From Eledone cirrhosa (Eukaryota), in assembly GCA_964016885.1 (NCBI GenBank), contig CAXHJY010001412.1, positions 13,291-77,290 on the forward strand: a stretch of 64,000 nt of DNA, in the 5' to 3' direction. Below, one piece after another: positions 5,501-52,995 of the stretch (the stretch's first letter is position 1; the number at the start of each line of letters is the position of its first letter). Below the pieces are notes generated by a model. It was given only the letters and a program-made list of their open reading frames with translations. It was not told where the DNA came from and did not search any database. Position numbers and translations under genes: made by a program.

Positions 5501-8500
5501 AATGTGTATTAGTCTATTGAAAGACACCAGTCAATGTGTATTAGTCTATTGAAAGACACCAGTCAATGTGTATTAGTCTATTGAAAGACACCAGTGAATG
5601 TGTATTAGTCAATTGAAAGACACCAGTGAATGTGTATTAGTCAATTGAAAGACACCAGTGAATGTGAATTAGTCTATTGAAAGACACCGGTCAATGTGTA
5701 TTAGTCTATTGAAAGACACCAGTCAATGTGAATTAGTCTATTGAAAGACACCAGTCAATGTGCATTAGTCTATTGAAAGACACCGTCAATGTGTATTAGT
5801 CTATTGAAAGACACCAGTCAATGTGTATTAGTCTATTGAAAGACACCAGTCAATGTGTATTAGTCTATTGAAAGACACCAGTCAATGTGAATTAGTCTAT
5901 TGAAAGACACCAGTCAATGTGTATTAGTCAATTGAAAGACACCAGTCAATGTGTATTAGTCTATTGAAAGACACCAGTCAATGTGTATTAGTCTATTGAA
6001 AGACACCAGTCAATGTGAAATAGTCTATTGAAAGACACCAGTGAATGTGTATTAGTCTATTGAAAGACACCAGTGAATGTGAATTAGTCTATTGAAAGAC
6101 ACCAGTCAATGTGAATTAGTCTATTGAAAGGCACCAGTCAATGTGAATTAGTCTATTGAAAGACACCAGTCAATGTGTATTAGTCTATTGAAAGACACCA
6201 GTGAATGTGAATTAGTCTATTGAAAGACACCAGTCAATGTGAATTAGTCTATTGAAAGACACCAGTCAATGTGTATTAGTCTATTGAAAGACACCAGTCA
6301 ATGTGAATTAGTCTATTGAAAGACACCAGTCAATGTGAATTAGTCTATTGAAAGACACCAGTCAATGTGTATTAGTCTATTGAAAGACACCAGTCAATGT
6401 GTATTAGTCTATTGAAAGACACCAGTCAATGTGCATTAGTCTATTGAAAGACACCAGTGAATGTGTATTAGTCTATTGAAAGACACCAGTCAATGTGTAT
6501 TAGTTTATTGAAAGACACCAGTCAATGTGAATTAGTCTATTGAAAGACACCAGTCAATGTGTATTAGTCTATTGAAAGACACCAGACAATGTGAATTAGT
6601 CTATTGAAAGACACCAGTCAATGTGTATTAGTCTATTGAAAGACACCAGTCAATGTGTATTAGTCTATTGAAAGACACCAGTCAATGTGAATTAGTCTAT
6701 TGAAAGACACCAGTCAATGTGTATTAGTCTATTGAAAGACACCAGTCAATGTGAATTAGTCTATTGAAAGACACCAGTCAATGTGTATTAGTCTATTGAA
6801 AGACACCAGTCAATGTGTATTAGTCTATTGAAAGACACCAGTCAATGTGTATTAGTCTATTGAAAGACACCAGTCAATGTGTATTAGTCTATTGAAAGAC
6901 ACCAGTCAATGTGTATTAGTCTATTGAAAGACACCAGTCAATGTGTATTAGTCTATTGAAAGACACCAGTCAATGTGTATTAGTCTATTGAAAGACACCA
7001 GTCAATGTGAATCAGTCTATTGAAAGACACCAGTTCATGTGAATTAGTCTATTGAAAGACACCAGTCAATGTGTATTAGTCTATTGAAAGACACCAGTCA
7101 ATGTGTATTAGTCTATTGAAAGACACCAGTCAATGTGAATTAGTCTATTGAAAGACACCAGTCAATGTGAATTAGTCTATTGAAAGACACCAGTCAATGT
7201 GAATTAGTCTATTGAAAGACACCAGTCAATGTGTATTAGTCTATCGAAAGACACCAGTCAATGTGTATTAGTCTATTGAAAGACACCAGTCAATGTGTAT
7301 TAGTCTATTGAAAGACACCAGTCAATGTGTATTAGTCTATTAAAAGACACCAGTCAATGTGAATTAGTCTATTGAAAGACACCAGTCAATGTGTATTAGT
7401 CTATTGAAAGAGACCAGTCAATGTGTATTAGTCTATTGAAAGACACCAGTCCATGTGCATTAGTCTATTGAAAGACACCAGTCAATGTGTATTAGTCTAT
7501 TGAAAGACACCAGTCAATGTGAATTAGTCTATTGAAAGACACCAGTCAATGTGAATTAGTCTATTGAAAGACACCAGTCAATGTGTATTAGTCTATTGAA
7601 AGACACCGTCAATGTGTATTAGTCTATTGAAAGACACCAGTCAATGTGTATTAGTCTATTGAAAGACACCAGTCAATGTGTATTAGTCTATTGAAAGACA
7701 CCAGTCAATGTGTATTAGTCTATTGAAAGACACCAGTCAATGTGAATTAGTCTATTGAAAGACACCAGTCAATGTGTATTAGTCAATTGAAAGACACCAG
7801 TCAATGTGTATTAGTCTATTGAAAGACACCAGTCAATGTGTATTAGTCTATTGAAAGACACCAGTCAAAGTGAAATAGTCTATTGAAAGACACCAGTGAA
7901 TGTGTATTAGTCAATTGAAAGACACCAGTCAATGTGTATTAGTCTATTGAAAGACACCAGTGAATGTGTATTAGTCTATTGAAAGACACCAGTCAATGTG
8001 TATTAGTCAATTGAAAGACACCAGTCAATGTGCATTAGTCTATTGAAAGACACCAGTGAATGTGTATTAGTCTATTGAAAGACACCAGTCAATGTGCATT
8101 AGTCTATTGAAAGACACCAGTCAATGTGAATTAGTCTATTGAAAGACACCAGTCAATGTGAATTAGTCTATTGAAAGACACCAGTGAATGTGTATTAGTC
8201 TATTGAAAGACACCAGTGAATGTGTATTAGTCTATTGAAAGACACCAGTCAATGTGAATTAGTCTATTGAAAGACACCAGTCAATGTGTATTAGTCTATT
8301 GAAAGACACCAGTCAATGTGAATTAGTCTATTGAAAGACACCAGTCAATGTGAATTAGTCTATTGAAAGACACCAGTCAATGTGAATTAGTCTATTGAAA
8401 GACACCAGTCAATGTGTATTAGTCTATTGAAAGACACCAGTCAATGTGTATTAGTCTATTAAAAGACACCAGTCAATGTGAATTAGTCTATTGAAAGACA

Positions 8501-9300
8501 CCAGTCAATGTGTATTAGTCTATTGAAAGAGACCAGTCAATGTGTATTAGTCTATTGAAAGAGACCAGTCAATGTGTATTAGTCTATTGAAAGACACCAG
8601 TCCATGTGCATTAGTCTATTGAAAGACACCAGTCAATGTGTATTAGTCTATTGAAAGACACCAGTCAATGTGAATTAGTCTATTGAAAGACACCAGTCAA
8701 TGTGAATTAGTCTATTGAAAGACACCAGTCAATGTGAATTAGTCTATTGAAAGACACCAGTCAATGTGAATTAGTCTATTGAAAGACACCAGTCAATGTG
8801 CATTAGTCTATTGAAAGACACCAGTCAATGTGCATTAGTCTATTGAAAGACACCAGTCAATGTGCATTAGTCTATTGAAAGACACCAGTCAATGTGAATT
8901 AGTCTATTGAAAGACACCAGTCAATGTGTATTAGTCTATTGAAAGACACCAGTGAATGTGTATTAGTCTATTGAAAGACACCAGTCAATGTGTATTAGTC
9001 TATTGAAAGACACCAGTCAATGTGAATTAGTCTATTGAAAGACACCAGTCAATGTGCATTAGTCTATTGAAAGACACCAGTCAATGTGAATTAGTCTATT
9101 GAAAGACACCAGTCAATGTGCATTAGTCTATTGAAAGACACCAGTCAATGTGCATTAGTCTATTGAAAGACACCAGTCAATGTGCATTAGTCTATTGAAA
9201 GACACCAGTCAATGTGTATTAGTCTATTGAAAGACACCAGTCAATGTGTATTAGTCTATTGAAAGACACCAGTCAATGTGTATTAGTCTATTGAAAGACA
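2543..9300. repeat. 32-bp tandem satellite, about 211 units
   Basis: The unit ATTGAAAGACACCAGTCAATGTGTATTAGTCT repeats head to tail with no spacers. Confidence 0.98.
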
Positions 9301-9997: not shown

Positions 9998-12456
9998 ATT
10001 CAATGTAGAAGAGAACTGAGAGTTCCTAAAAAATAACTTACTAGAGGCGACGGATGAGATCTGTGGCTGGAGTAAGACCACAAGCAGGAGGAGAGTGACT
10101 TGGTGGTGGAACAATAAGGTAGATGAGGCAGTTAAGGCCAAGAGACAGGCATGGAAAGAATGGAAGAACGGGGGGAAGCAGGGTACATTACATAGAGACC
10201 AAGAGGGAAGCTAGGCGACAAGTATACTGAGCTAGGAGGGAAGCAGAGGATAGAAAATTCAAGCATGTTTTGCAACGTGAGGACCAGAAACAGGAGGTGT
10301 TCAAGATTGCGAGGCAGTGTGTCAGAGAGAATTGTGATGTCATTGGAGAGAAGTGTATCCGGAATGATAAAGGTGAGCTTGCCCTCACAAGTGCTGAGAA
10401 GAAAGATGCATGGAAGAGTCATTATGATAGATTACTAAATGAGGAGAATGCATGGGAAGAAGAGACCCTACCCCAAGTAGACCCTATAGAGGGGCCAGCA
10501 GTACAAGTCAGCAGCAGCATAGTAAGTAAGGCAATCAAAGATATGAAGATGGGGAAGGCAACCGGTCCATCGGGTATAGCTGCCGAGATGCTGAAGGCAT
10601 CTGGGTCTGTAGGTCACACTATAACCACACGTATTGTTAACCAAGTAATACTAGAAGGTGTCATACCAAAAGATTGGTGCAGTAGCATCATTGTCAACTG
10701 CTACAAAGGTAAAGGTGATGCACTAGATAGAGGAAACTATAGAGGTATAAAGCTGATGGACCAGGTCATGAAAGTAACAGAAAGAGTTATAGCACAGTTG
10801 ATTAGGGACCGGGTGAAACCAGACGAGATGCAATTTGGGTTTGTACCAGGAAGAGGCACCACTGATGCCCTCTTCCTTGTCAGGCAGTTACAGGAAAAGT
10901 ACCTAGCTAAAAGTAAGCCACTCTACTTGGCATTTGTCGATCTTGAGAAAGCCTTTGACAGAGTTCCACGTGCTGTAATCTGGTGGGCTCTTAGAAAACT
11001 AGGAGTAGATGAATGGCTTGTGAAAGCGGTACAAGCCATGTATAGGGGAGCAGTCAGCAAAGTTAGGATTAGCAATGAGTATAGCGAGGAATTTAGCGTA
11101 CAGGTTGGGGTACACCAGGGCTCTGTTCTTAGCCCCCTCCTGTTCATCATAGTCCTGCAGGCAATAACGGAGGAGTTTAAGACCGGATGCCCATGGGAAC
11201 TCCTGTATGCTGATGACCTCGCACTTATAGCTGAATCTATGGTAGAACTAGGAAGAAATTCCAAACTTGGAAGTAGGGACTAGAAAGAAAGGGTCTCAAA
11301 GTCAACATGACAAAGACTAAGGTCCTTGTAAGTAGACGAGAAAACAGAACCCAGATCCCCTCAGGGAAATGGCCTTGCTCAGTATGTAGGAAAGGTGTAG
11401 GTAGGAACTCCATTCTCTGCCCCAAATGCAAACAATGGGTACACAAGAGATGTAGCGGGATCTCAGGAAGCTTAATTAAGAATGTAGGCTTCACATGCAG
11501 CAGCTGTGCTGGGACAGCAAGCAGCCACAGGAAACAAGCACCACCAATCTCTGGGAGGGCTCTGTAGAAACAGTAGACAGCTTCTGCTACGTAGATGACT
11601 GAATTAGCAGCGGAGGTGGGTGTTCAGAAAGTACAATAACTAGGGTAAGAACGGGATGGAAGAAGTTTAGGGAACTACTACCACTGCTAGCTGCAAAAGG
11701 CTTCTCCCTCAGAATGAAAGGCAGACTGTATGATGCGTGTATCCGAACAGCAATGTTACATGGTAGTGAGACCTGGGCGCTGAAGGTGGAAGACTTACGT
11801 AGATTAGAGAGAAACGAAGCCTGCATGCTCCGATGGATGTGTAATAGTAATATACGCGAACGACAAAGCATAAATGAATTGAGAGAGAGACTGAGCATAA
11901 GAGGAATCAAATGCTGTGTGCAGGAGAGGCGGTTGCGTTGGTATAGACATGTGACGCGTATGAAGGATGACAGCTGCATAAAAAGGTGCAGAGCACTAGA
12001 AGTCGATGGAAACCGCGGAGTGGGGGGACCCAAGATGAGGTGATAAAAGCCGACCCTACCCAATTACACCTCTCAAAGGCGATAACACACGACCGTGACC
12101 TCTGGCGTCACGCAGTAATACAGAGTACCTGACCTCCCATGGGTACAAGCTGAAGCATATAGACAATATGCCCCCACACCCCCCACTGCAAGGTGGTCGT
12201 GGAGGTGCCACGGCAAAAAAGCACCCAGCCCACACTGTAAAGTGGATGTGTAGGCGCCACGGAAAAGCACCCAGCACTCACTGTAAATGAGGTTGGTGTT
12301 AGGAAGGGCATCCAGCTGTAGAAACCAAGCCAAATCAGTTCCTGTATGAGCAAGGCATGGTCAGCCGACCAGACACTGCCCACAACAGGACAACCCGTCT
12401 AACCCATGCTAGCGTGGAAGAACGGACGTAAAACGGTGATGATGATGATGATGATG
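9998..12456 (+). mobile_element. RTE-clade LINE, 5'-truncated and disrupted (subfamily A)
   Basis: ORF 10270-11283 has RT motifs (NYRGIKL, QFGFVPGRGTTDA, FVDLEKAFDRV, GVHQGSVLSP, LLYADD). A Cys/His finger and the HGSETW/RRLRWY domain follow in other frames, and the element ends in a (GAT)n tail at 12438-12456. Confidence 0.95.
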
Positions 12457-15944: not shown

Positions 15945-18900
15945 CATCATCATCTTTTAACGTCCATCTTCCACGCTTGCATGGGTTTGGACGGGAATTT
16001 TCCCACTTGAGGCAAGATTGGTCGTCTTGCTCGTATAGGACTGTCTGGCGGGTTTTCTACGGCTGTATGCCCTTCCTAACACCAACCACGTTTACAGTGT
16101 GGACTGGGAGGTTTTTACCGTGTTACCTACACGGTCACATTACAGCGTGGACTGTGTGTTTTTTTTGTCGTGACACCTACACGACCTCATTTGTTTCGGA
16201 CTGGATGTTGTGGTACCAACATAACTTTACATTGAAAGGGGTGGTGTGGATGGGGTGGGGGTAGTGGGACTGGGGTGTATTTTTATTAGAGGTGCCTACT
16301 GACTGTAGGTTTCGCTTTGTACTTAGGCAAGGCAGGTCTTCTGTATTACTGTGTAACGCCAAAGATCTCGGTCCAGTGACATTGTCTTGGAGAGGTGTAA
16401 TTGTGTGAGGTTGGAATTTATCAAGTCGTTCCAGGTTTTTCTGGGTCTGCCTACTCCATGGCTACCGTCTATTTTTATCGCCCTGCACTTTTTTATACAG
16501 CTGTCGTCTTTCATGCGCATCACATGACCGTACCAACGTAGTCTTCTCTCGAGTAAACAACATCTGATCCCTTTTATTCCTAATTTCTCCCTTAGTTCGT
16601 TTATGCTTTGCCGTTCACATATATTACTATTCCACATCCAGCGGAGCATGCAAGCTTCGTTCCTCTCCAGTCTGCATATATCCTCTGCACACAAGGCCCA
16701 TGTCTCACTGCCATGTAACATTGCTGTTCATATGCAGGCATCATACAGCCTGCCTTTCATTTTTAGAGATAACTCTTTAGCAGCCAATAGTGGTATAAGT
16801 TCTCTGAACTTTTCCATCCCGTTCTGACTCTAGCTACTGTACTTTCAGAGTACCCTCCACCACTGGTGATTTTGTAACCCAGGTAACGGAAGGTGTCCAC
16901 TATTTCTATAGAACCATCTGTGCAATGGAATGAGCTAGTATTCTGTCGGCACTTGCTGCTACTTATTGCACCAGAGCACCGGCCACATATAAAATCTATA
17001 TTTTTAGTTAGCTTACCTGTGATCCCACTACATCTTTTATGCACCCATACTTTGCATTTGGGACATAAAATGGAGTTTCTGCCTACTCCTTTCCTACACA
17101 CTGAGCATGGCCATTTCCCAGATGGGACTGGTGCCCTATTTTCCTTCCTACAAACTAGAACTTTAGTCTTAGACAGGTTAATTTTAAGGCCTTTTGATTC
17201 TCGGCCATGCTTCCATGTTTGGAATTTCTTCTCTAGTTCGGCCATTGATTCAGCTATGAGCGTTAGATCATCTGCGTATAGGAGTTCCCATGGGCAGCCG
17301 GTCTTGAACTCCTCTGTTATAGCCTGAAGCGCAATAATAAATAGGAGGGGGCTAAGAACGGAGCCCTGATGAACACCAACTTTTACGCTAAACTCTTCAC
17401 TATATTCGTTGTTAATTCTAACCTTGCTGACTGTTTCTTTATACATGGCTTGTATAGCTCTCACAAGCCATTCATCAACACCTAGTTTTCTAAGAGCCCA
17501 CCAGATAATGGAGCGGGGGACTGTCAAAAGCTTTCTCCAAGTCAACAAAAGCTAAGTATAGGGGTTTACTTTTCGCTAGGTACTTCTCCTGTAGTTGCCG
17601 TACAATGAAAAGAGCTTCTGTGGTACTTTTACCTGACACAAACCCGAACGCATTTCATCTAGATCAATTCGCTCTCTGATTAGTTGCGCTATTACTTTTT
17701 CTGTGACCTTCATGACCTGGTCGATTAATTTAATGCCTCTATAGTTACTCCTATCTAGGGCATCTCCTTTACCCTTGTAGCAGTTAATGATGATGCTGCT
17801 ACGCCAGTCCTTCGGAACGACCCCATTCTGTATGACTTGGTTTACTATCCGGGTGACCATAGTGTGTCCCACCGTTCCAGATGCTTTCAGCATTTCAGCA
17901 ACTATTTCCGAAGGCCCAGCCGCCTTACCCGTCTTCATATCTTTGATTGCCTTACTTATTATACTACCTTCAACTAGCACTGCTGGTCCCTCTATTGGAT
18001 CAATGTGGAGCAGACTGTCTTTCTCCCAATTATTCCCCTCATTTAGTAGCCTTTCGTAGTGACACTTCCAAGCTACCTTCTTATCAGCATCAGTGATGGC
18101 AAGTACATCATCATCATTAAGGACACACTTCTCCCCGACAATATCACTGTTTTCCTTGACGCATTGCCTAGCAATCCTGAACACCTCACGTTTTCGGTCC
18201 TCGCATTGTAGAACATGCTTGAACTTTCTTTCCTCTGCTTCCCTTCTTGCGAAGTACACTCGTCTCCTAGCTTCCCTCCTGGCCACTTGATAGTCTTCTC
18301 TACTTCCCCTATCCCGCCATACTTTCCAAGCCTGCTTTTTGGCCTTAATTGACTCCTCCACCTTACTATTCCACCACCACGTTACTCTCCTCCTGCCTAT
18401 AGGCCTACTCCAGCCACAGACATCATCTGCCGCCTTCAGCAGGTTAGCTTTCAGGAATTCCCACTGTTCCTCTATATTGTACGACTAATTGCTCTTCCTT
18501 ACTGTCAAAAGCATCAAGTAATATGCTTTTAAATTTATTACTGGCTGTGGGGCCCTTTAGCTTCCATATTTTTCTCCTGAGGATAGTCTTCCTCTGTTGT
18601 CGAGTACGTGTTGTCCTGACTATGCGGTCGCTGACTATGAGTATGTTGGGAGGTGCGTTCTTCGTGGGGGAGGGATTTAGTGTTTACAACAGACACTATA
18701 TCACGTCTTCTGGTAAGGATATAATCTATCTGACTGGCGTGTTCCCCTGATCTATAGGTGATCAAGTGATTGTCTTGTTTTTTGAAGTTAGTGTTACAGA
18801 TAGGTTATTTGCGTCACAGAATTCCAGGATTCTGGAGCCTTCCTCATTTCTAGTACCAAACCCATAGCCTCCATGGATTCCGTCATAGCCATCACAATGT

Positions 18901-19536
18901 TGTCCAACGTGACCGTTTAGGTCGGCAGCAATAATTATGTAGTCACTGTCGGTTATTTGGGAGGTAGTGAGCATCAATGTCTCATAGAATCTGTCTTTTA
19001 TAATGCCAGGCAGTCCGGATTGGGGTGCGTACGCAAATATTACTGTCACAGTAGTTCTATTTAGGACAAGTCTTATTTTAATTATTCTGTCGTTCACTCT
19101 ATTTACGTCTATTATCTTATCTACCCATTTTCTGCTAACATGATTCCTACCCCACCCAGAAAAGCTTATAGCATCGTTTTTTACCCACAATGAATCTAGC
19201 CGACCTACCCCTCCACCTGGTCTCTTGGATACAGCAAACATCAACCTCCTTACGTTCAAGCATTTCTACAACCTTGTTAGAGCGACCTTTTAAGGTGCCT
19301 ACATTCATGGTACCAACTCTGAAGTTTTGGATTGCGTTTGGTGGGTGGGAACGGTGGGGCGCGGGGAGGGGGCTGGGGTTATGTTGGCCATCCACGGCCG
19401 AAATAAAGAGGAGGAGTCTTTGCCTTTTCGTCCGGCAGCATGAGGTGAATTTGTCTTTATCTTTGGCATTGTCACTGAGTGTCAGATTTTCAGACTCTCC
19501 AGAATTCCCTAGTCCATCCATCATATCAAAAGGCAA
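15945..19536 (-). mobile_element. Near full-length RTE LINE (APE endonuclease, RT, PHD-like finger), multiply frameshifted (subfamily B)
   Basis: Successive minus ORFs: FRVGTMNVGTL/CCIQETRW (19147-19536), AYAPQ/ADLNGHVG (18762-19259), SQIDYIL (18538-18765), RT (17576-18361 and 16763-17548 with YADD) and HGSETW (16323-16721). The (CAT)n tail is at 15945. The 5' end is not defined. Confidence 0.95.
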
Positions 19537-38049: not shown

Positions 38050-38982
38050 ATTGGCATCTATCATAATGCCCATTTTTAGAGAGAAACCCCTTGTGGCCAA
38101 TAGCGGTAGGAGCTCTCTGAACTTTTTCCATCCAGTTCTAACTCTACTACTACTACACTTTGAGAGCACCCTCCTCCACTGCTGATTTTGTGACCCAGAT
38201 AACAGAAGGTGTCTACTATTTCTATAGAACCATCTGGGCAGTTGAAGGTGATAGCATCCAGTGGGTCCTTGCTACTTACTGCACCTGACCATCAGCCAGA
38301 TATAAAATCTATGTTCAGATATAAAATCTGATCCCACTACATCTTTTGTGTACCCATAGATTGTATTTGGGACATAGAATGGAGTTTCTGCCTACTCCTT
38401 TCCTACACACTGAGCATGGCCATTTCCCAGAGGGTACCTGTGCCCTATTCTCCTTTCTACATACTAGAACCTTAGTCTTAGACAAGTTGACTCTAAGGCC
38501 TTTTGATTCTAGGCCATACTTCCATGTTTGGAACTTCCTCTCTAGTTCAGCCATGGATTCAGCTATAAGAGTTAGATCATCTGCGTATAGAAGTACCCAT
38601 GGGCAGCCAGTCTTAAACCCCTCTGTTATAGCCTGTAGGACAATAATAAACAGGAGGGAGTTAAGAACAGAGCCCTGTTCAACCCCTACTATTACGCTAA
38701 ATTCATCACTATATTCATCACTAATTCTAACCTTGCTGACTGTTCCTCTATACATGTATAGCTTTTCAAGCCATTCTTCTACTACTAGTTTTCTAAGAGC
38801 CCACCAGATTTAGGTGTGTGGGACTCTGTCAAAGGCCTTCTCCAGGTCAACAAAAGCTAAGTAGAGGGGTTTACTGTTAGCTAGGTACTTCTGCAATTGC
38901 CGTACAAGGAAAAGAACATCCGTGGTACTTTTAGCTGACACAAACCCAAACAGCATTTCATCTAGATCAATTTGGTCTCTGA
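38050..38982 (-). mobile_element. Internal RTE LINE fragment (RT and PHD-like finger)
   Basis: ORF 38315-38755 contains LLYADD and CSVCRKGVGRNS, and is similar to 16760-17680. Confidence 0.9.
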
Positions 38983-40010: not shown

Positions 40011-42590
40011 AAAGGTCAAATGGCCTGAGGGCCACCTCCTCCCTGGAATGACGTCAATAGAACAGAGACAGACGGAATCCCTGCTGGCCCTCACACACAG
40101 GCTGTTCATGGAGCAAGCAATACTCCTCCCAACAAGAGGCGAAAATGTCCTGGACCTCTGTTTTACAAACAACGAAGTGCTCATCCACAATGTAAAGGTG
40201 ACACCAACAATTCTCTCGGATCATAACTTAGTAGAGCTAATGATATGTGGTCCAAGAGAACCAACAGAGACAAAACCACCAAGAACTCCGGGACGCTATC
40301 CAGCCTTAACTTCTACAAGGCTAACTGGAAAAAGATTAAGAGTGAAATCCGGAAGCAAACATGGAGTGAAAACACTGCCACACAAAACACTAACAAACAA
40401 TTTCAACACTTCATGACAACGATACACACCATATGCAAAAAGTTTGTCCCGGAGAAAGAGGCAAACAGACACAAAAATCTTATTCCCAGAGATAGGAAAA
40501 TCCTTATGAGACATAGAACTAAACTCTCAAACCAGTTGAATAGTCAACAAAACAAAAACAAGAAGGAATCCTATTTGAAACGTGCACTACTTGACACCGA
40601 GATTGCACTCAAACTTTCACATGAGAATGAGAGGGCAAAGAAAGAGAACAGGGCCATAGAAAACATTAAAACAAACCCTAAGGCCTTCTTTAAATTTGCA
40701 AAAGAAACTGCCTCAGTACACTGCAAGATTGGGCCACTCTTCCACACGGACGGTTCATTAACCGAAAACCCCCAAGAGATATGTGAAATACTGAACGAAC
40801 AGTACAAAAGTGTGTTCACATGTCCACTGAGGCACATGCAAATAACAAAGCCAGAGGAGTTCTTTGATGCCACAACACTACATCAAGAAATGGCAACCAT
40901 CAACCACATAGACATAACGGAGGAGGATGTGGTGTACGCCATTGATGAAATTAGAACAGACTCGGCTGCTGGACCTGATGGATTCCCAGCAGTTCTCTTA
41001 AAAATATGTAAGCGGGCCTTAGCAACTCCACTGAAGATGCTCTTCAGAAGCTCCTTGGCTAGCGGTGTACTACCCAGGGAGCTGAAAGAAGGCACAATAT
41101 GCCCTATCCATAAAGGAGGTAGTAGAGCGGAGGCCAAGAACTATAGGCCAGTCTCCCTGACGTCGCATATCAGTAAGGTCATGGAGCGAGTCGTCAGAAA
41201 GAAACTAATCACTTTCCTCGAAGAAAATGACCGCCTGACTAGCACGCAACATGGCTTCCGCCCAGGAAGAAGCTGCCTTACACAGCTGCTACATCACTAC
41301 GACTGGGTACTGAGACAACTACTAGACAGCTCACATGTGGACGTGATATATCTTGACTTTGCGAAGGCCTTTGACAAGGTCGACCACGGAATGATATGTC
41401 ACAAACTACATGGACTCGGCATAACTGGAAAAGTAGGTGAGTGGCTGCATGGCTTCCTAAGGGACAGAAGCCAGGCAGTCGCAGCAAATAGGGCCCTCTC
41501 GAGGGAAACACCGATAACAAGTGGGGTGCCCCAGGGGACAGTCCTGGGACCACTACTGTTTTGGGTGGCTCTCTCGGACATGCCCTCCGTGGTGCATGCA
41601 ACAACATCCCTCACTAGCTATGCTGATGACACTAAGGTAGCACAGGCAATCAAAAACCCGGCTGACGCTGCCCTTTTACAGCAGGATCTGGATGCCATAT
41701 ACAGATGGGCGGAAGAAAACAACATGCAGTTTAATGCTGGCAAATTCCAAGCCCTACAATATAAACCTGCAAACACAAATATAGTGGAACACAGCTACAC
41801 AGGACCAGGAGGGACCGATATCCCCGTGTCAAAATCGATACGAGACCTGGGCATAGACATGAGCGATGATGCATCTTTTTCTTCACACATCATGAAAGTG
41901 GCGACAATGTGCAGACGACTCGCTGGCTGGATCTTGAGGACTTTCCGGGCAAGAGATTGAGACACCATGTTGACACTGTGGAGGACTTTTGTCCTAAGCC
42001 GCCTGGACTACTGCTCCCAGTTGTGGTCACCCCATAGTGTCAAACTAACCACGGAGCTTGAGGCAATCCAGCGAAGCTACACCAAGAGGATTGCCAAGAT
42101 GAGGGAGACAAGCTACTGGGAGAGGCTGAAGGAACTGAACCTCTACTCCTTGGAGCGAAGACGGGAGAGATACGCAGTGATCTACATGTGGAAAATCCTG
42201 GAGGGACTAGCACCAAACTTTGGCATTGGGAGCTGGACCAACCGTCGAACAGGACGTCACTGTGTGGTGCCAAAGGTCCCGTCTTCCACATCTAGAATAA
42301 GGAGCAGGTATTGCAACAGCCTGGGATTCAAGGGCCCTCAACTCTTCAACAGGCTGCCGAGGCATCTGCGAGACTTGCATGACGTGGAGGTGGATGTCTT
42401 TAAGAAACCTCGTTATCCAGGATCACGGATGAGCCCACAGCAAGAAACGAGGGAAAACTAAGGGCAGCAGCAACAAACTCCCTCTTACACCAGTGGCCAA
42501 CCTATACAGGCTGGAGATAAAATGTGTAGCAACAAGGGCGGTGCCCCAGCATGGCCTCAGCCGGATGGCTGAAACAGGTAAAAGAGTAAA
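40011..42590 (+). mobile_element. CR1-clade LINE, 5'-truncated ORF2
   Basis: Endonuclease tail ([16 protein letters not shown]) and ORF 40245-41960 with NYRPVSLTS, QHGFRPGRSC, YLDFAKAFDKV, SGVPQGTVLGP and YADDT. The same frame continues after one stop (LYSLERRRER), and a 3' stem-loop CAGCC/GGCTG precedes the tail. Confidence 0.93.
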
Positions 42591-42801
42591 TATATATATA
42601 CAAATATATATATATATATATATACAAATATATATATATATATATACAAATATATATATATATATATACAAATATATATATATATATATACAAATATATA
42701 TATATATATACAAATATATATATATATATATATACAAATATATACAAATATATATATATACACAAATATATATATATACAAATATATATATATACAAATA
42801 T

Positions 42802-43622
42802 ATCATCATCATCAACGTTTAACGTCCGTGTTCCACGCTTGCATGGGTTTGGACGGGGGTTTTCCCACTTGAGGCGAGAGTGATTATCTTGCTCGCATAG
42901 GACTATCTGGCGGGTTTTCTACAGTTGGATGCCCTTCCTAACACCAACCACATTTACAGTGTGGGGCTGGGAGGTTTTTACCGTGTTGCCTACACGGCCA
43001 CATTACAGCGTGAACTGTGTGTTTTTTTGACATGACACCTACACGATCACATTTGTTTCGGCCTGGATGTTGTGGCACCAACATAACTTTACATTGAAAG
43101 GGGTGGTGTGGATGGGGTGGGGGTGGTGGGATGGGGGTGTATTTTGTTAGAGATGCCTACTGGCTGTAGTAGGTTTTACTATGTATTTAGGTAAGGCGGG
43201 TCTTCTCTATTACTGAGTACCGCCAAAGGTCTCGGTCCAGTGACATTGTCTTGGAGAGGTGTAAGTGTGTGAGGTCGGAGTTTATCAGCTCGTCCCAGGA
43301 TTTTCTAGGTCTGCCTATTCCGTGGCTACCGTCTATCTTTATTGCCCTGCACTTTGTTATACAGCTATCGACTTTCATGCGCATCGCGTGTCCGTACCAA
43401 CGTAGCCTTCTCTCGAGTAAACAACATCTGATCCCTCTTATTTCTAATTTTTTCCTTAGTTTGTTTATGCTTTGCTGTTCACGTATATTACTATTACACA
43501 TCCAGCGGAGCATGCAAGCTTCGTTTCTCTCTAGTCTGCGTATATCCTCTGCACACAATGCCAAGGTCTCTCTTTCTTGCAAACTAGAACTTTAGTCTTA
43601 GCCAGGTTAATTTTAAGGCCTT
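42802..43622 (-). mobile_element. RTE LINE 3' fragment (subfamily B) with internal deletion
   Basis: (CAT)n tail and ORF 43187-43582. At about 43570 the sequence jumps from the ETW region to the GLKINLAKTKVLVC region. Confidence 0.9.
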
Positions 43623-43630
43623 GTATATAT

Positions 43631-44633
43631 CATCATCATCATCATCAACGTTTAACGTCCGTGTTCCACGCTTGCATGGGTTTGGACGGGGGTAGTCCCA
43701 CTTGAGGCAAGAGTGATTGTCTTGCTCGCATAGGACTGTCTGGCAGGTTTTCTACTGTTGGATGCCCTTCCTAACACCAACCACATTTACAGTGTGGGTC
43801 TGGGAGGTTTTTACCGTGTTGCCTACACGGCCACATTACAGCGTGGACTGTGTGTTTTTTTTGTCGTGACACCTACACGATCTCATTTGTTTCGGCCTGG
43901 ATGGTGTGGCACCAACATAACTTTACATAGAAGGGGGTGGTGTGGATGGGGTGGGGGTGGTGGGATGGGGGTGTATTTTGTTAGAGATGCCTACTGGCTG
44001 TAGTAGGTTTTACTATGTATTTAGGTAAGGCGGGTCTTCTCTATTACTGAGTACCGCCAAAGGTCTCGGTCCAGTGACATTGTCTTGGAGAGGTGTAAGT
44101 GTGTGAGGTCGGAGTTTATCAGCTCGTCCCAGGTTTTTCTAGGTCTGCCTATTCCGTGGCTACCGTCTATCTTTATTGCCCTGCACTTTGTTATACAGCT
44201 ATCGACTTTCATGCGCATCACGTGTCCATACCAACGTAGCCTTCTCTCGAGTAAACAACATCTGATCTCTCTTATCTCTAATTTTTTCCTTAGTTTGTTT
44301 CTGCTTTGCCGTTCACGTATATTACTGTTACACATCCAGCGGAGCATGCAAGCTTCGTTCCTCTCTAGTCTGCGTATATCCTCTGCACACAATGCCCAGG
44401 TCTCACTGCCATGCAGCATTGCTGTTCGTATGCAGGCATCGCACAACCTGCCTTTCATTTTTAGGGAGAACCCTTTAGCAGCTAATAGTGGTATAAGCTC
44501 TCTGAACTTTTTCCAACCAGTTCTGACTCTAGCTACAGTACTTTCAGAGCACCCTCCCCCACTGCTGATTTTATCGCCCAGGTAACGGAAGCTGTCCGCT
44601 ATTTCTATAGAACATACATATATATATACATAC

Positions 44634-44664
<31 letters not shown>

Positions 44665-44743
44665 CATATATATATAGAACCCTCTGCGCAATTGAAAGAG
44701 CTAGTATTTTGTGGGCACTTGCTGCTACTTATTGCACCAGAAC
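43631..44743 (-). mobile_element. RTE LINE 3' fragment (subfamily B) interrupted by microsatellite
   Basis: ORF 44021-44635 is nearly identical to the adjacent copy, with a TA/TACA insert at 44614-44672. Confidence 0.92.
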
Positions 44744-44782
44744 ATATATATACATACATACATATATACATACATACATACA

Positions 44783-44814
<32 letters not shown>

Positions 44815-45001
44815 CACATATACATACATACATATACACATATATATATATACATACATATACACATATATATATATACATACATATACACATATATATA
44901 TATACATACATATACACATATATATATATACATACATATACACATATATATATATACATACATATACACATATATATATATACATACATATACACATATA
45001 T

Positions 45002-45540
45002 ATGGTGGCTGCCAACTCGTTTTCGAGTACGGCCACTACTTTATATCCATGTAGGAGAACCCCTACCGATGCGCTGAACGAGTGTGACTTTTCAGTCCGG
45101 CCAGCGACTTGAAAACCCCGGTACAAACACTACACATGTGACAATTATTGACACATAGTGCTGGGCCCATGGTGCCATGTGACGACAAGTGCAGAGAGAT
45201 CTCCAGATATAAAGCAATGCCTGTGCCGTGAAGCTTTTATAGTGAGCAAAGGCACTGCACAAAGCCAGTCCCACTCTCTTAACCAAGATGATATTTACCA
45301 AAAAGAAGAACAAGTCAACATCATTGGATATCATCAGGGTTGCAGGTGTGATATCAGAGTTTTCCTTCTCCTAGAATTCTGCCTTGACAAAGGCTAAGGG
45401 GTCATCTCTCCCGGTGATTTTGGATGGCCATTGACTTTTAAGAGCTCCTTTGCCCTTTGACAGGTTTTGTTTTTAGTCCTGCAGGATGTCCAAAGTCACC
45501 CTCCCTCACCAAGAAACCTTGGTGGGTTGCCACTGGCAAC
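45002..45540 (-). mobile_element. Bipartite RTE-derived non-autonomous element, copy 1
   Basis: Shares the 3' end ...CTCGAAAACGAGTTGGCAGCCACCAT with four other copies; 539 bp. Confidence 0.85.
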
Positions 45541-45955
45541 ACATATATATATATACATACATATACACATATTATATATATACATACAATTACACATATA
45601 TATATATACATACATATACACATATATATATTACATACATATACACATATATATATATACAATACTATATATACTTACATATATATATATATATATATAT
45701 ATACATACATATATAATACATAACATATATATATATATATACAATACATACATATATATATACATATATATATACTATATATATATTATACATACATATA
45801 TATACATATAATATTATAAATATATATATATATATATACATATATATATACATATATATATACATACAATATATATATATTATACATATATATATATATA
45901 TATAACAATATCTATATATATATATATATATATACATATATATATACATATATAT

Positions 45956-45986
<31 letters not shown>

Positions 45987-46172
45987 CATATATATATACT
46001 ATATATATATACATACATATAGTATATATATATATATACATATAAATATATATAGTATATATACATACATATATATATACATACATATATATATATATAT
46101 ATATTACATACATATATATATATATATATACATACAATATATATATATATTATATATACATATATATATTAC

Positions 46173-46229
<57 letters not shown>

Positions 46230-46278
46230 CATATATATATACATATATATATATATACATACATACATATATATATAC

Positions 46279-46493
<215 letters not shown>

Positions 46494-46494
46494 C

Positions 46495-46531
<37 letters not shown>

Positions 46532-46548
46532 CATACATATATATATAC

Positions 46549-46599
<51 letters not shown>

Positions 46600-46616
46600 C
46601 ATACGTACATACATAT

Positions 46617-46647
<31 letters not shown>

Positions 46648-46691
46648 CATACATACATATATATATACATACATACAAGTATGTAATTAAC

Positions 46692-46749
46692 CTTTATGCT
46701 CTGATGAGTCCCACTTATAGTGCGGATGAAACAATGTTAGCAAGTAAAG
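46692..46749 (+). ncRNA. Minimal type I hammerhead ribozyme in a PLE-like island
   Basis: CTTTA-TGCT-CTGATGA-GTCC(CAC ttata GTG)c GGAT-GAAA-CaatG-TT-AGCA-ag-TAAAG. Both cores are intact and stem I is extended. Confidence 0.7.
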
Positions 46750-47330
46750 ATATGCATATGCTATAAGCGTTCTTTGTTAGTTATTATATTACGGCTCTGT
46801 CCTCAGACATTGAGCTAACCTCATACTACCTGCTGGATAAGTGGAGTATTACACACCCCTGATCCTTTCCCTAGCATACTATATATATATACATACATAC
46901 ATACATATATACATACATACATACATATATACATACATATATATATACATACATACATACATATATATACATACATACATACATATATATACATACATAC
47001 ATACATATATATATACATACATATATATATATACATACATATATATATACATACATATATATATACATACATACATATATATATATATACATACATATAT
47101 ATATATATACATACATATATATATATATATATATACATACATATATATATATATATACATACATATATATATATATACATACATATATATATACATACAT
47201 ATATATATATACATACATATATATATACATACATATATATATATACATACATACATATATATATATATACATACATATATATATATATACATACATATAT
47301 ATATATATATACATACATATATATATATAT

Positions 47331-47361
<31 letters not shown>

Positions 47362-47402
47362 CATACATATATATATATATACATACATACATACATATAT
47401 AT

Positions 47403-47433
<31 letters not shown>

Positions 47434-47500
47434 CATACATATATATATATATATATACATACATACATACATATATATACATACATACATACATATATAT

Positions 47501-47535
<35 letters not shown>

Positions 47536-47628
47536 CATACATATATATATATATATATACATACATATATATATATACATACATATATATATATATATAT
47601 ACATACATATATATATATATATACATAC

Positions 47629-47663
<35 letters not shown>

Positions 47664-47765
47664 CATACATATATATATATATATATACATACATATATAT
47701 ATATATATATACATACATATATATATATATATATACATACATATATATATATATATATACATACA

Positions 47766-47805
<40 letters not shown>

Positions 47806-47810
47806 CATAC

Positions 47811-47843
<33 letters not shown>

Positions 47844-47849
47844 CATACA

Positions 47850-47909
<60 letters not shown>

Positions 47910-47950
47910 CATACATACATATATATATATACATACATATATATATATAC

Positions 47951-47981
<31 letters not shown>

Positions 47982-48057
47982 CATACATATATATATATAT
48001 ACATACATATATATATATACATGCATACATACATATATATATATATACATACATATA

Positions 48058-48103
<46 letters not shown>

Positions 48104-48308
48104 CATATATATATATATATACATACAAACATACATATATATATATACATATACATATATACATACATACAAACATACATATATATATATACATATACAT
48201 ATATACATACATACAAACATACATATATATATACATATACATATATACATACATACAAACATACATATATATATATACATATACATATATACATACATAC
48301 ATATATAT

Positions 48309-48339
<31 letters not shown>

Positions 48340-48459
48340 CATACATACATACATACATATATACATACATACATACATACATATATACATACATACATAT
48401 ATATATATACATACAATATATATATACATACATACATATATACATACATACATATATAC

Positions 48460-48492
<33 letters not shown>

Positions 48493-48493
48493 C

Positions 48494-48526
<33 letters not shown>

Positions 48527-48680
48527 CATACATACATACATATATACATACATATATATATACATATATATATACATACATACATATATACATACATATA
48601 TACATACATATATACATACATATATACATACATACATACATACATACATACATACATACATACATACATACATACATACA

Positions 48681-48712
<32 letters not shown>

Positions 48713-49035
48713 CATACATACATACATATATATATATATATACATACATACATATATATATACATACATACATATATATATACATACATATATATATATA
48801 CATACATATATATATATATATACATACATACATATACATACATATATATATATATACATACATATACATACATATATATATATATACATACATACATATA
48901 TATATACATACATATATATATATATACATACATACATATATATATACATACATACATATATATATACATACATATATATATATATACATACATACATATA
49001 TATATACATACATATATATATATATACATACATAC

Positions 49036-49103
49036 ATGATGGCTGCCCCCTCGTTATCGAGTATGGCCATTGCACAATAAAAAAAAAAAAAAAAAAAAAA
49101 AAA

Positions 49104-49187
<84 letters not shown>

Positions 49188-49372
49188 GAAAAAAAAAAAA
49201 AAAAAAAAAAAAAGGGAAAAGATATATATATATATATATACACACATATATATACATATATATATACATACACATATATATACACACACACATACATACA
49301 CATACATACATATATACACACACACATACATACACATACACTCACACATATATACACACATACATTAATAAC

Positions 49373-49415
<43 letters not shown>

Positions 49416-49494
49416 GCAATAATATTAATAACGACAACAACAACAATAATATACATATTCATATATATGTACACACACACGCACGCACATAAGC

Positions 49495-49532
<38 letters not shown>

Positions 49533-49825
49533 GATAGCAACTAACAGTGCTGCGATCGAATGTGGCTTTTTAGCCCAGCCAATGATCTAAAATGTCTTGC
49601 ACAGAGTCGGCAACCAAAACATTTACTGGGAATAGTCGGCTGTGGTTGGAGTTCGTGTACTTTTGCATGTCGCTTGAGTCCTCCTGCTGATTTACATTCT
49701 CTACCACATGTTTGGCAAGCATGATGAGTAGCATCTCCAACAGCAGCCTGGTAGTCAACCACTGGTCTTACTTTATGACTGCGAAGATGACTTTCGAGTC
49801 CAGCTTTGCTTAGGCAGAGTCTCGC
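49036..49825 (-). mobile_element. 3' end of an RTE LINE with three C-terminal C2H2 zinc fingers
   Basis: ..[37 protein letters not shown] and [23 protein letters not shown] (stop at 49541). A microsatellite-rich UTR follows, ending TGGCCATACTCGATAACGAGGGGGCAGCCATCAT(GTAT)n. Confidence 0.75.
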
Positions 49826-49924
49826 ATACATATATATATACATACATATATTATACATACATATATATATACATACATATATATATACATACATATATAT
49901 ATACATACATATATATATATATAC

Positions 49925-49957
<33 letters not shown>

Positions 49958-49989
49958 CATATATATACATACATACATATATATATACA

Positions 49990-50025
<36 letters not shown>

Positions 50026-50097
50026 TACATACATATATATATATACATACATATATATATACATACATATATATATACATACATATATATATATACA

Positions 50098-50143
<46 letters not shown>

Positions 50144-50226
50144 CATACATATATACATACATATATATATATATATACATACATATATATATATACATAC
50201 ATATATACATACATATATATATATAC

Positions 50227-50644
50227 ATGGTGGCTGCCAACTCGTTTTCGAGTACGGCCACTACTTTATATCCATGTAGGAGAACCCCTACCGAAGCGCT
50301 GAACGAGTGTGACTTTTTAGTCCAGCCAGCGACTTGAAAACTCTGGTACAAACACTACACCTGTGACAATTATTGACACATAGTGCTGGGCCCATGGTAC
50401 CATGTGAGGACAAGTGCAGAGAGATCTCCAGATACAAAGCAATGCCTGTGCCGTGAAGCTTTTATAGTGAGCAAAGGCACTGCACAAAGCCAGTCCCACT
50501 CTCTTAACCAAGATGATATTTACCAAAAAGAAGAACAAGTCAACATCATTGGATACCATCAGTGTTGCAGGTGTTATATCAGAGTTTTCCTTCTCCTAGA
50601 ATTCTGCCTTGACAAAGGCTAAGGGGTCATCTCTCCCGGTGATT
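50227..50644 (-). mobile_element. Bipartite RTE-derived element, copy 2
   Basis: Same 3' end, 5'-truncated; 418 bp. Confidence 0.85.
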
Positions 50645-50676
50645 AATATATATACATACATATATATATACATACA

Positions 50677-50731
<55 letters not shown>

Positions 50732-50742
50732 ACATACATATA

Positions 50743-50811
<69 letters not shown>

Positions 50812-50839
50812 ATACATACATATATATATATATACATAC

Positions 50840-50875
<36 letters not shown>

Positions 50876-50883
50876 ATACATAC

Positions 50884-50919
<36 letters not shown>

Positions 50920-50959
50920 ATACATACATATATATATACATACATACATACATATATAT

Positions 50960-51000
<41 letters not shown>

Positions 51001-51013
51001 CATACATATATAT

Positions 51014-51044
<31 letters not shown>

Positions 51045-51133
51045 ACATACATACATACATATATATATACATACATATATATTACATACATACATATATA
51101 TATATACATACATATATATATATATATACATAC

Positions 51134-51168
<35 letters not shown>

Positions 51169-51173
51169 CATAC

Positions 51174-51208
<35 letters not shown>

Positions 51209-51279
51209 CATACATATATATATATATATACATACATACATATATATATATATATACATACATACATATATATATATAC

Positions 51280-51310
<31 letters not shown>

Positions 51311-51598
51311 CATACATATATATATATATATACATACATACATATATATACATACATACATACATATATATATACATACATATATACATACATATACATA
51401 CATATATATATATACATATATATATACATACATATATATATACATACATATATATATATATATATACATATATACATATATATATACATACATATATATA
51501 TATATATATACATACATATATATATATATATATACATACATATATATATATATATATACATACATATATATATATATATATACATACATATACATACA

Positions 51599-51636
<38 letters not shown>

Positions 51637-51832
51637 CATATATATACATACATATATATATATATACATACATATATATACATATATATACATATATATA
51701 CATATATATACATACATATATATATATATACATACATACATATATATATACATACATACATATATATATATATACATACATATATATATATATACATACA
51801 TACATATATATATATATACATACATATATATA

Positions 51833-51873
<41 letters not shown>

Positions 51874-51993
51874 ATACATACATATATATATATATATACA
51901 TACATACATACATATATATACATACATACATATATATACATACATACATACATATATATATATATATACATACATATATATATATATACATAC

Positions 51994-52064
<71 letters not shown>

Positions 52065-52283
52065 CATATATATATACATACATATATATATATATATATA
52101 TACATATATATATACATACATATATATATATATATATACATATATATATACATACATATATATATATATACATACATATATATATATATATACATACATA
52201 CATACATATATACATACATATATATATATACATACATACATACATACATATACATACATACATACATATATATACATACATAC

Positions 52284-52738
52284 ATGGTGGCTGCCAACTC
52301 GTTTTCGAGTACGGCCACTACTTTATATCCATGTAGGAGAACCCCTACCGATGCGCTGAACGAATGTGACTTTAGTCCAGCCAGCGACTTGAAAACTCTG
52401 GTACAAAGGCTACACTTGTGACCATTATTGACACATAGTGCAGGGCCCATGGTACCATGTGATGACAAGTGCAGAGAGATCTCCAGATATAAAGCAATGC
52501 CTGTGCTGTGAAGCTTTTATAGTGAGCAAAGGCACTGCACAAAGCCAGTCCCACTCTCTTAACCAAGATGATATTTACCAAAAAGAAGAACAGGTCAACA
52601 TCATTGGATACCATCAGGATTGCAGGTGTTATATCAGAGTTTTCCTTCTCCTAGAATTCTGCCTTGACAAAGGCTAAGGGGTCATCTCTCCCGGTGATTT
52701 TGGATGGCCATTGACTCTTAAGAGCTCCTTTGCCCTTT
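52284..52738 (-). mobile_element. Bipartite RTE-derived element, copy 3
   Basis: Same 3' end, 5'-truncated; 455 bp. Confidence 0.85.
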
Positions 52739-52824
52739 ACATACATATACATATACATACATACATATACATACATACATACATATACATACATACATAC
52801 ATACATATACATACATATATATAT

Positions 52825-52875
<51 letters not shown>

Positions 52876-52881
52876 CATACA

Positions 52882-52917
<36 letters not shown>

Positions 52918-52963
52918 CATACATATATATATATACATACATATATATATATATATACATACA

Positions 52964-52995
<32 letters not shown>

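Follow-up and report, generated by a model that had tools for sequence, protein, structure and literature searches.

A truncated three-finger RTE end and related small bipartite elements in a polarised microsatellite array of Eledone cirrhosa

A fragment at positions 49036–49825 (minus strand) of the 64,000-nt stretch of Eledone cirrhosa DNA analysed here (the window) was confirmed to be the broken 3′ end of a single-ORF, RTE-type non-LTR retrotransposon. It was recovered by a profile to which only homologues contributed (E 2.6e-30), and its longer relatives encode an endonuclease (EN), a reverse transcriptase (RT) and three C2H2 zinc fingers. Five small bipartite elements with a closely similar terminus lie in or beside the same (TA)/(TACA) array. 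We consider it probable that the truncated three-finger RTE end and the small elements, as derivatives of a sister family, were inserted by TPRT into an array that already existed.

The fragment and its longer relatives

The ORF remnant (49541–49825, on the minus strand like all parts of the fragment) encodes 94 residues followed by a TAG stop. It consists of the C-terminal half of finger 1 (49775–49825), whose cysteines were lost through truncation, and two whole fingers, finger 2 (49655–49717; Pfam zf-C2H2) and finger 3 (49547–49612; H-x4-H, Pfam zf-C2H2_4). The 3′ UTR that follows (471 nt, 49070–49540) contains the (GT)n, (ATT)n and poly-T tracts described in an earlier, sequence-only reading of this DNA, the latter two as (ATT)14, (ATT)25, T25 and T27, and (AT)n as well. 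With the terminal hairpin motif (34 nt, 49036–49069), beyond which the array begins with GTATGT, the 3′ UTR comes to 505 nt. The same reading called the element a probable autonomous partner and triple-C2H2. The latter term holds for the relatives; the fragment retains two fingers and half of the first, and is not itself autonomous because EN and RT are absent from this copy.

As that reading had anticipated, the finger peptide recovered EN-RT-zinc-finger elements. In a protein search (138 candidates), RT was present in 13 of 16 longer homologues and EN as well in 7 of the 16, and these proteins were 38–52% identical to the fragment peptide across 95–98% of its length. APE endonuclease and RT motifs were found in all five full proteins checked. 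When 245 stored proteins, a set enriched for the lineage by the preceding searches, were ranked by best single local alignment, the top 32 all carried this C-terminus. An exon or retrocopy of a spliced host zinc-finger gene, the objection that the sequence-only reading had itself raised, was rejected as scarcely credible: multi-finger proteins did lead by summed E-value in a search of 1.84 billion proteins, and a protein Atlas search with the peptide gave generic C2H2 clusters, but the multi-finger matches were mostly partial, spread over many stretches and only ~28–38% identical, the full-coverage matches were RT-linked, and the 3′ end bears the hairpin of the clade.

We assign the lineage to RTE provisionally, on its architecture, tail and 5′-UTR features rather than on a tree. 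No protein from a named RTE came back from any search, and the PDB matches were confined to L1 ORF2 (E 5e-24) and R2. Nine metagenome loci were confirmed out of 98 pattern matches, several of them near-complete, single-ORF elements of ~4.6 kb with leaders of 0.8–1.1 kb. The ORFs of the relatives span 1110–1199 codons, and no ORF1-like frame was seen, the longest ATG-initiated ORF in the leaders of three relatives encoding 81–135 residues. A very short 3′ UTR is usual in the RTE clade; it measures ~20–130 nt in the relatives and 61 nt in the small element, but 505 nt in the fragment. A search for near-length proteins gave three matches (38–45% identity), and across the protein searches, where the best identity was ~52%, no full-length copy of either window family was recovered. 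In prokaryote genomes the lineage was confirmed in none of eight pattern matches; two weak single-finger loci from viral contigs (L010 and L011) were kept out of the analyses.

Two further features of the relatives were observed. The same end occurs in other hosts: the C-termini of three proteins (P0113, P0178 and P0008) continue through the terminal hairpin and on to repeats of TA or ATGT. Upstream of the ORF, a leader segment of ~300 nt (L001:780–1090 and its equivalents in L003, L004, L006 and L007) is conserved far above the expectation for a UTR; it has no Rfam match and is absent from the small element. Several of the relatives' ORFs lack an early ATG, and this segment is a candidate translation-initiation element.

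The terminal hairpin and the small elements

The stem-loop that the sequence-only reading saw in both the fragment and the small element proved to be a conserved and covarying structure. The two termini differ, as reported there, at 5 of 34 positions (6, 14, 21, 22 and 31), none within the GCC/GGC or CTCG/CGAG pairs, and the differences at 21 and 22 abolish extra stem pairs that are possible in the small element. A scan of both window strands with up to 11 mismatches found solely the five small copies and the fragment. The hairpin followed by CATGT ends all nine metagenome loci, and the (ATGT)n tail is long in five of these and 1–3 units in the other four. A terminus profile made from eight loci, with window sequence excluded and L002 left out here and in the alignment as a near-duplicate of L003, placed the six window termini at the top (E 0.012–0.41; next match 4.7). 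Over 10 sequences, 97% of cells in the hairpin pair, with two-sided changes in four of seven pairs. None of 500 shuffles reached its covariation score, and slid controls were 27–61% paired. The terminal hairpin is thus a real and old structure. By analogy with LINEs of the stringent type, in the available text of PMC3747384 and PMC6007223, we infer that it may serve as the RT recognition signal.

The small element is present in five copies, all on the minus strand: 45002–45538, 50227–50645 (5′-truncated), 52284–52738 (with a 2-nt deletion in the coding relic), 54692–55074, and 59204–59745, the longest, which has 13-nt and 2-nt deletions. They are 96.0–98.1% identical and have a single 3′ end and five differing 5′ ends. 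In the second copy, a 23-nt stretch (50578–50600) is identical to the RTE 5′-UTR domain of OegopSINE (supplement of PMC5786205), as it is in four of the five copies. A motif of ~70 nt (50436–50509) is common to the 5′ UTRs of full-length three-finger relatives. Downstream comes the coding relic, which runs from the last part of finger 2 through finger 3 to a stop (50288–50419), and then a 61-nt UTR. The relic retains ~43 in-frame zinc-finger codons and was detected in all five copies by the homologue profile (E 4e-9 to 4e-7). The ten-residue peptide of the last finger, said by the sequence-only reading to match between fragment and relic, takes one form in four of the copies and a variant form in the fifth.

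The leader motif links the small element to the 5′ end of the lineage, as the same reading had suggested it might. An alignment of four loci has 45 invariant columns, of which 34 remain so when a small copy is added. A covariance model of these four relatives' leaders, for a region picked by eye after the likeness had been noticed, found all five small copies at E 0.002–0.003, with the next match at 0.57; nhmmer leader profiles, which use sequence only, did not detect the small element. The motif is predicted to form a hairpin with a pseudoknot, in which 88.8% of cells pair (2 of 500 shuffles). Its two-sided changes were equalled in 45 of 500, which is not significant, and the motif of the small element folded alone gave a different fold (z -0.58). 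The case for a pseudoknot, which would include one compensated pair, is weak. Rfam gave no match at gathering to the small element or the leader motif, only matches with chance-level E-values, and no ribozyme is proposed. Judged by their sequences, the small elements are bipartite derivatives in which the leader motif is joined to the finger relic and terminus. A tRNA-headed SINE was rejected, as ARAGORN found no tRNA genes and Rfam gave no real match to tRNA, 5S or 7SL. The small element could have a decayed head, or a longer 5′ end when untruncated.

Two observations concern individual segments of the small element. At 45436–45507, within its leader, depth in run X6 is ~200-fold above that of the rest and there are many loose contig ends, so another abundant repeat shares this segment. 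At 50288–50395 (minus strand) and its equivalents, an ATG in the relic stands in an ACCATGG context and opens a 35-residue, single-finger peptide whose frame is open in three of the five copies. The open frame probably reflects merely a young element; it could be translated.

Is the fragment's family the parent of the small elements? Over the 27 codons of finger 3, 47–51 of 81 nucleotides are identical between the fragment and the three in-frame relics, and third positions account for most of the differences (pS 0.80–0.99, pN 0.25–0.27). The two lineages thus appear from their sequences to have separated while constrained as coding sequence, well before the small copies multiplied. Given the saturation at silent sites and the very unequal lengths of the 3′ UTRs (61 and 505 nt), against near-identity among the small copies, the fragment's family is probably not the parent, which is most likely another autonomous family. 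As the hairpin occurs throughout the clade, it singles out no partner. The designation of the fragment as the probable partner is therefore not supported in that form, on both the clade-wide hairpin and the saturated silent sites. What fits better is the fallback of the sequence-only reading, that the true partner may be a relative of this copy: on the silent-site evidence, the fragment's family is probably a sister of the small elements' source family, and a possible trans-mobiliser. That source was not found by a search with the relic peptide, among the stored proteins or by aligning contigs to the copy at 45002–45538. Among the contig ends listed, one contig in run X4 (depth 5.4) leaves the small element at 45198, beside the inferred junction, which is a hint only.

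A working partnership would not require descent, and by way of the hairpin the fragment's family could act in trans to mobilise the small element. We regard this as possible, if doubtful. The fragment's terminus is the closest found to that of the small element (29 of 34 positions identical, compared with 18–23 of 34–35 for distant relatives), F-[KR]-SLAGL and H-x4-H are common to both, and both lie in one array in one orientation. Words from the fragment occur in at least 18 runs of 14 studies, none of those listed being an RNA run, and the small element was present in all four sequencing runs examined (its summed depth was near 10^6 in one of them, a figure that is not a copy number). Set against these are the saturated silent sites and unequal 3′ UTRs, the difference in the extended stem at positions 21 and 22, and the lack of any intact copy among those recovered.

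The microsatellite array as target

The polarised (TA)/(TACA) array (45543–63999) hosts five of the six inserts, and the sixth, at 45002–45538, lies at its edge. On the plus strand ATACAT occurs 1580 times and ATGTAT 17 times; in bases 1–44600 the counts are 40 and 27. All six inserts are co-oriented, with the tail strand matching the array (p ~0.03 by arithmetic, if they are independent). The 3′ flank of each insert mirrors its own 5′ flank, as shown by G count (r=0.96) and by an 8-mer permutation test (p=0.004, six inserts, with the 3′ boundary of the fragment one base off). Together, the co-orientation and matching flanks, for six inserts in one array, point to insertion into a pre-existing microsatellite, and the flank match fits this better than it fits RNA-templated tails alone. 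It is likely that the fragment and the small elements insert into such repeats as their target. Among the relatives, L003 begins with (ATGT)n, the sole such case among three loci with long leaders. L006, L008 and L009 have tails of at most three ATGT units, and L008 then enters unique DNA, so insertion in the clade is not strictly confined to this target.

The sequence-only reading proposed that the zinc-finger array could supply recognition of TA/TACA, which is plausible by analogy. In a stronger form, the three fingers would be the main target reader, binding AT-rich or (TACA)n DNA and tethering the endonuclease. Helix positions -1, 2, 3 and 6 on the reading face are nearly invariant (S, A/G, G and S/R/N) in 13 of 13 homologues at ~50% overall identity, and three fingers and the ATGT end are both present in the clade. 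In canonical TGEKP arrays, the first His of one finger is 11 residues from the next Cys. The spacing here is long and variable, at 18–31 residues in all 13 homologues, none of which is a canonical Krüppel array with short TGEKP-type linkers. The predicted structure consists of three separate fingers without a fixed relative orientation (pLDDT 81.5, pTM 0.33), and a fold search with this model gave no match at E<=0.001. The peptide scores above the Pfam thresholds of zf-C2H2_jaz and zf-met as well, two families that bind RNA. A precedent comes from SALL4, where AT-rich DNA is read by small residues at helix positions and ZFC4 has such residues at -1, +2 and +3, as do these fingers (available text of PMC9838217). 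The likeness is an analogy only: binding by the TGEKP-linked pair of SALL4 has been measured, whereas the fingers of this lineage have long linkers. We hold finger-led targeting to be rather doubtful, and rank it below tail pairing combined with an endonuclease preference.

The array could also have arisen with no targeting at all, from the elements' own tails, followed by slippage or conversion that homogenised the flanks too. The available text of PMC2887409 gives this some footing, since RTE sites are described there as apparently not sequence-specific and RTE tails as generating microsatellites. Within the window, the overlaps that could represent TSDs (5–30 nt inside repeats, where RTE TSDs are ~7–15 bp) reached only p=0.067 by permutation, and the 3′ flank of the copy at 45002–45538 consists of ~10 tandem copies of a 26-mer. 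Tail-derived growth accords less well with the 5′ side, where all six junctions, at differing truncation points, directly abut microsatellite. It must also contend with the mirroring of local 5′ flanks by 3′ flanks, which extends to a rare GTGT variant found on both sides of the copy at 45002–45538, and with two copies that run on with ATAT instead of ATGT. We judge an untargeted origin to be quite unlikely, and prefer insertion into existing repeats.

Some other sequences in and around the array deserve mention. The 26-mer tract spans 44742–45003, and the 26-mer is also found at the 5′ flank of the same copy; the tract is either a minisatellite that predates the insert or a target duplication that became amplified. 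Short non-repeat islands occur in the array at 46677–46879, 53560–53745 and 60291–60510, the second being a piece of a SINE-like repeat that is also present at 42796. Elsewhere in the window, 16323–19265 (minus strand) holds another degraded LINE family, in which a PHD finger (Pfam PHD, 30.9 bits against a cut-off of 24) interrupts the RT domain, with related pieces at 10231–12043, 38315–38971 and 43187–44741. The protein Atlas contains a cluster with RVT_1, EN and PHD (48% of members). A 32-bp satellite occupies 2543–9300 (211 copies, 96% matches), and an unrelated non-LTR RT ORF of 577 residues, which continues past one stop, lies at 40227–42461 (plus strand).

A proposed mechanism and its relation to known elements

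We propose the following account. By homology, the intact element has a long structured leader and one ORF of ~1,100–1,200 aa encoding APE endonuclease, RT and three C2H2 fingers. Its protein would bind the terminal RNA hairpin, a structure established by covariation. After a nick by the endonuclease within the microsatellite, the end of the RNA, ..CAU(GU/AU)n, would pair with the TACA/TA strand, and this pairing would both prime RT and fix the orientation of the insert. The fingers, with their small reading-face residues, would contribute a low-specificity affinity for nucleic acid, and site choice would not depend chiefly on them. The constant 3′ end and the varied 5′ ends seen in the window would follow if RT stops early. 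The small element would have arisen by internal deletion within the sister family, retaining the signals of the 5′ leader together with the final ~200 nt; that family, and perhaps the fragment's family too, would copy it in trans. Tail-target pairing has been proposed for RTEs before (available text of PMC6007223).

Both RTEs with zinc fingers and bipartite derivatives of RTEs have been described before. The closest comparison is RTE-2_OV of Octopus vulgaris, which has a single 1109-aa ORF with EN, RT and C2H2, like the fragment's relatives, and UTRs of ~600 nt, in which microsatellite fills the 3′ UTR from the end of the ORF, as in the fragment (available text of PMC9115989). That text does not describe its finger count, target preference or a non-autonomous partner. 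The primer LineR7, from the end of the RTE-2_OV ORF, has no match with up to three mismatches in the window, and RTE-2_OV is thus probably another family than the fragment's. In Bov-A, RTESINE1/2, WALLSI3 and RTE-N2_Lch, part of a 5′ UTR is joined to an RTE 3′ end, the same plan as in the small element (available text of PMC5786205). The small element differs from them in retaining in-frame finger codons and in being confined to microsatellite in the window, and none of six marker motifs taken from its leader motif occurs in the supplement of that paper.

Known RTE/SINE pairs share with these elements a covarying 3′ hairpin, a short repeat tail, tail-target microhomology and many 5′-truncated copies; they differ in their dispersed sites and preference for T stretches, whereas the window inserts have the same microsatellite on both flanks and a fixed orientation (available text of PMC6007223, PMC3747384 and PMC2887409). 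A likeness to the window inserts is also seen in Dong, on (TAA)n, and TRAS, on telomere repeats, which insert into pre-existing simple repeats (available text of PMC2887409). The protein here, in contrast to those of Dong and TRAS, combines APE and RT with C2H2 fingers at its C-terminus. Dong and TRAS belong to the R4 and R1 clades, respectively. In the full-text literature searched, as far as its text was available, we found no RTE lineage described that combines three fingers, an ATGT tail and insertion into microsatellite, and nothing on the three-finger lineage in the available text of PMC10294476 and PMC10085705; such an element may be catalogued in Repbase, Dfam or subscription journals, which lay outside this scope.

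As first claimed, with the fragment copy as partner, the finding would be modest and mostly within known biology. A broader proposition is that a widespread sublineage of RTE uses a C-terminal array of three small-residue C2H2 fingers to target (ATGT)n/(TA)n microsatellites, that only the 5′ pseudoknot and the 34-nt 3′ hairpin are needed in cis, and that bipartite parasites mark, and help to grow, the multi-kilobase polarised TACA arrays of the Eledone genome. Taken as a whole this is unlikely, and a shade more so than finger-led targeting by itself. RTE proteins are in development as gene writers that copy an RNA template and integrate at random (available text of PMC13708176), and an RTE that is naturally directed to repeats would be of practical interest for gene writing. 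The small element, as a natural minimal template of leader motif and terminal hairpin, points to the cis signals. Should a three-finger RTE lineage indeed insert into existing TA/TACA arrays in a fixed orientation, it would be an exception among the RTEs, which are described as non-specific in their sites and as makers of microsatellites, and it would allow long microsatellite tracts and retroelements to expand jointly in repeat-rich invertebrate genomes.
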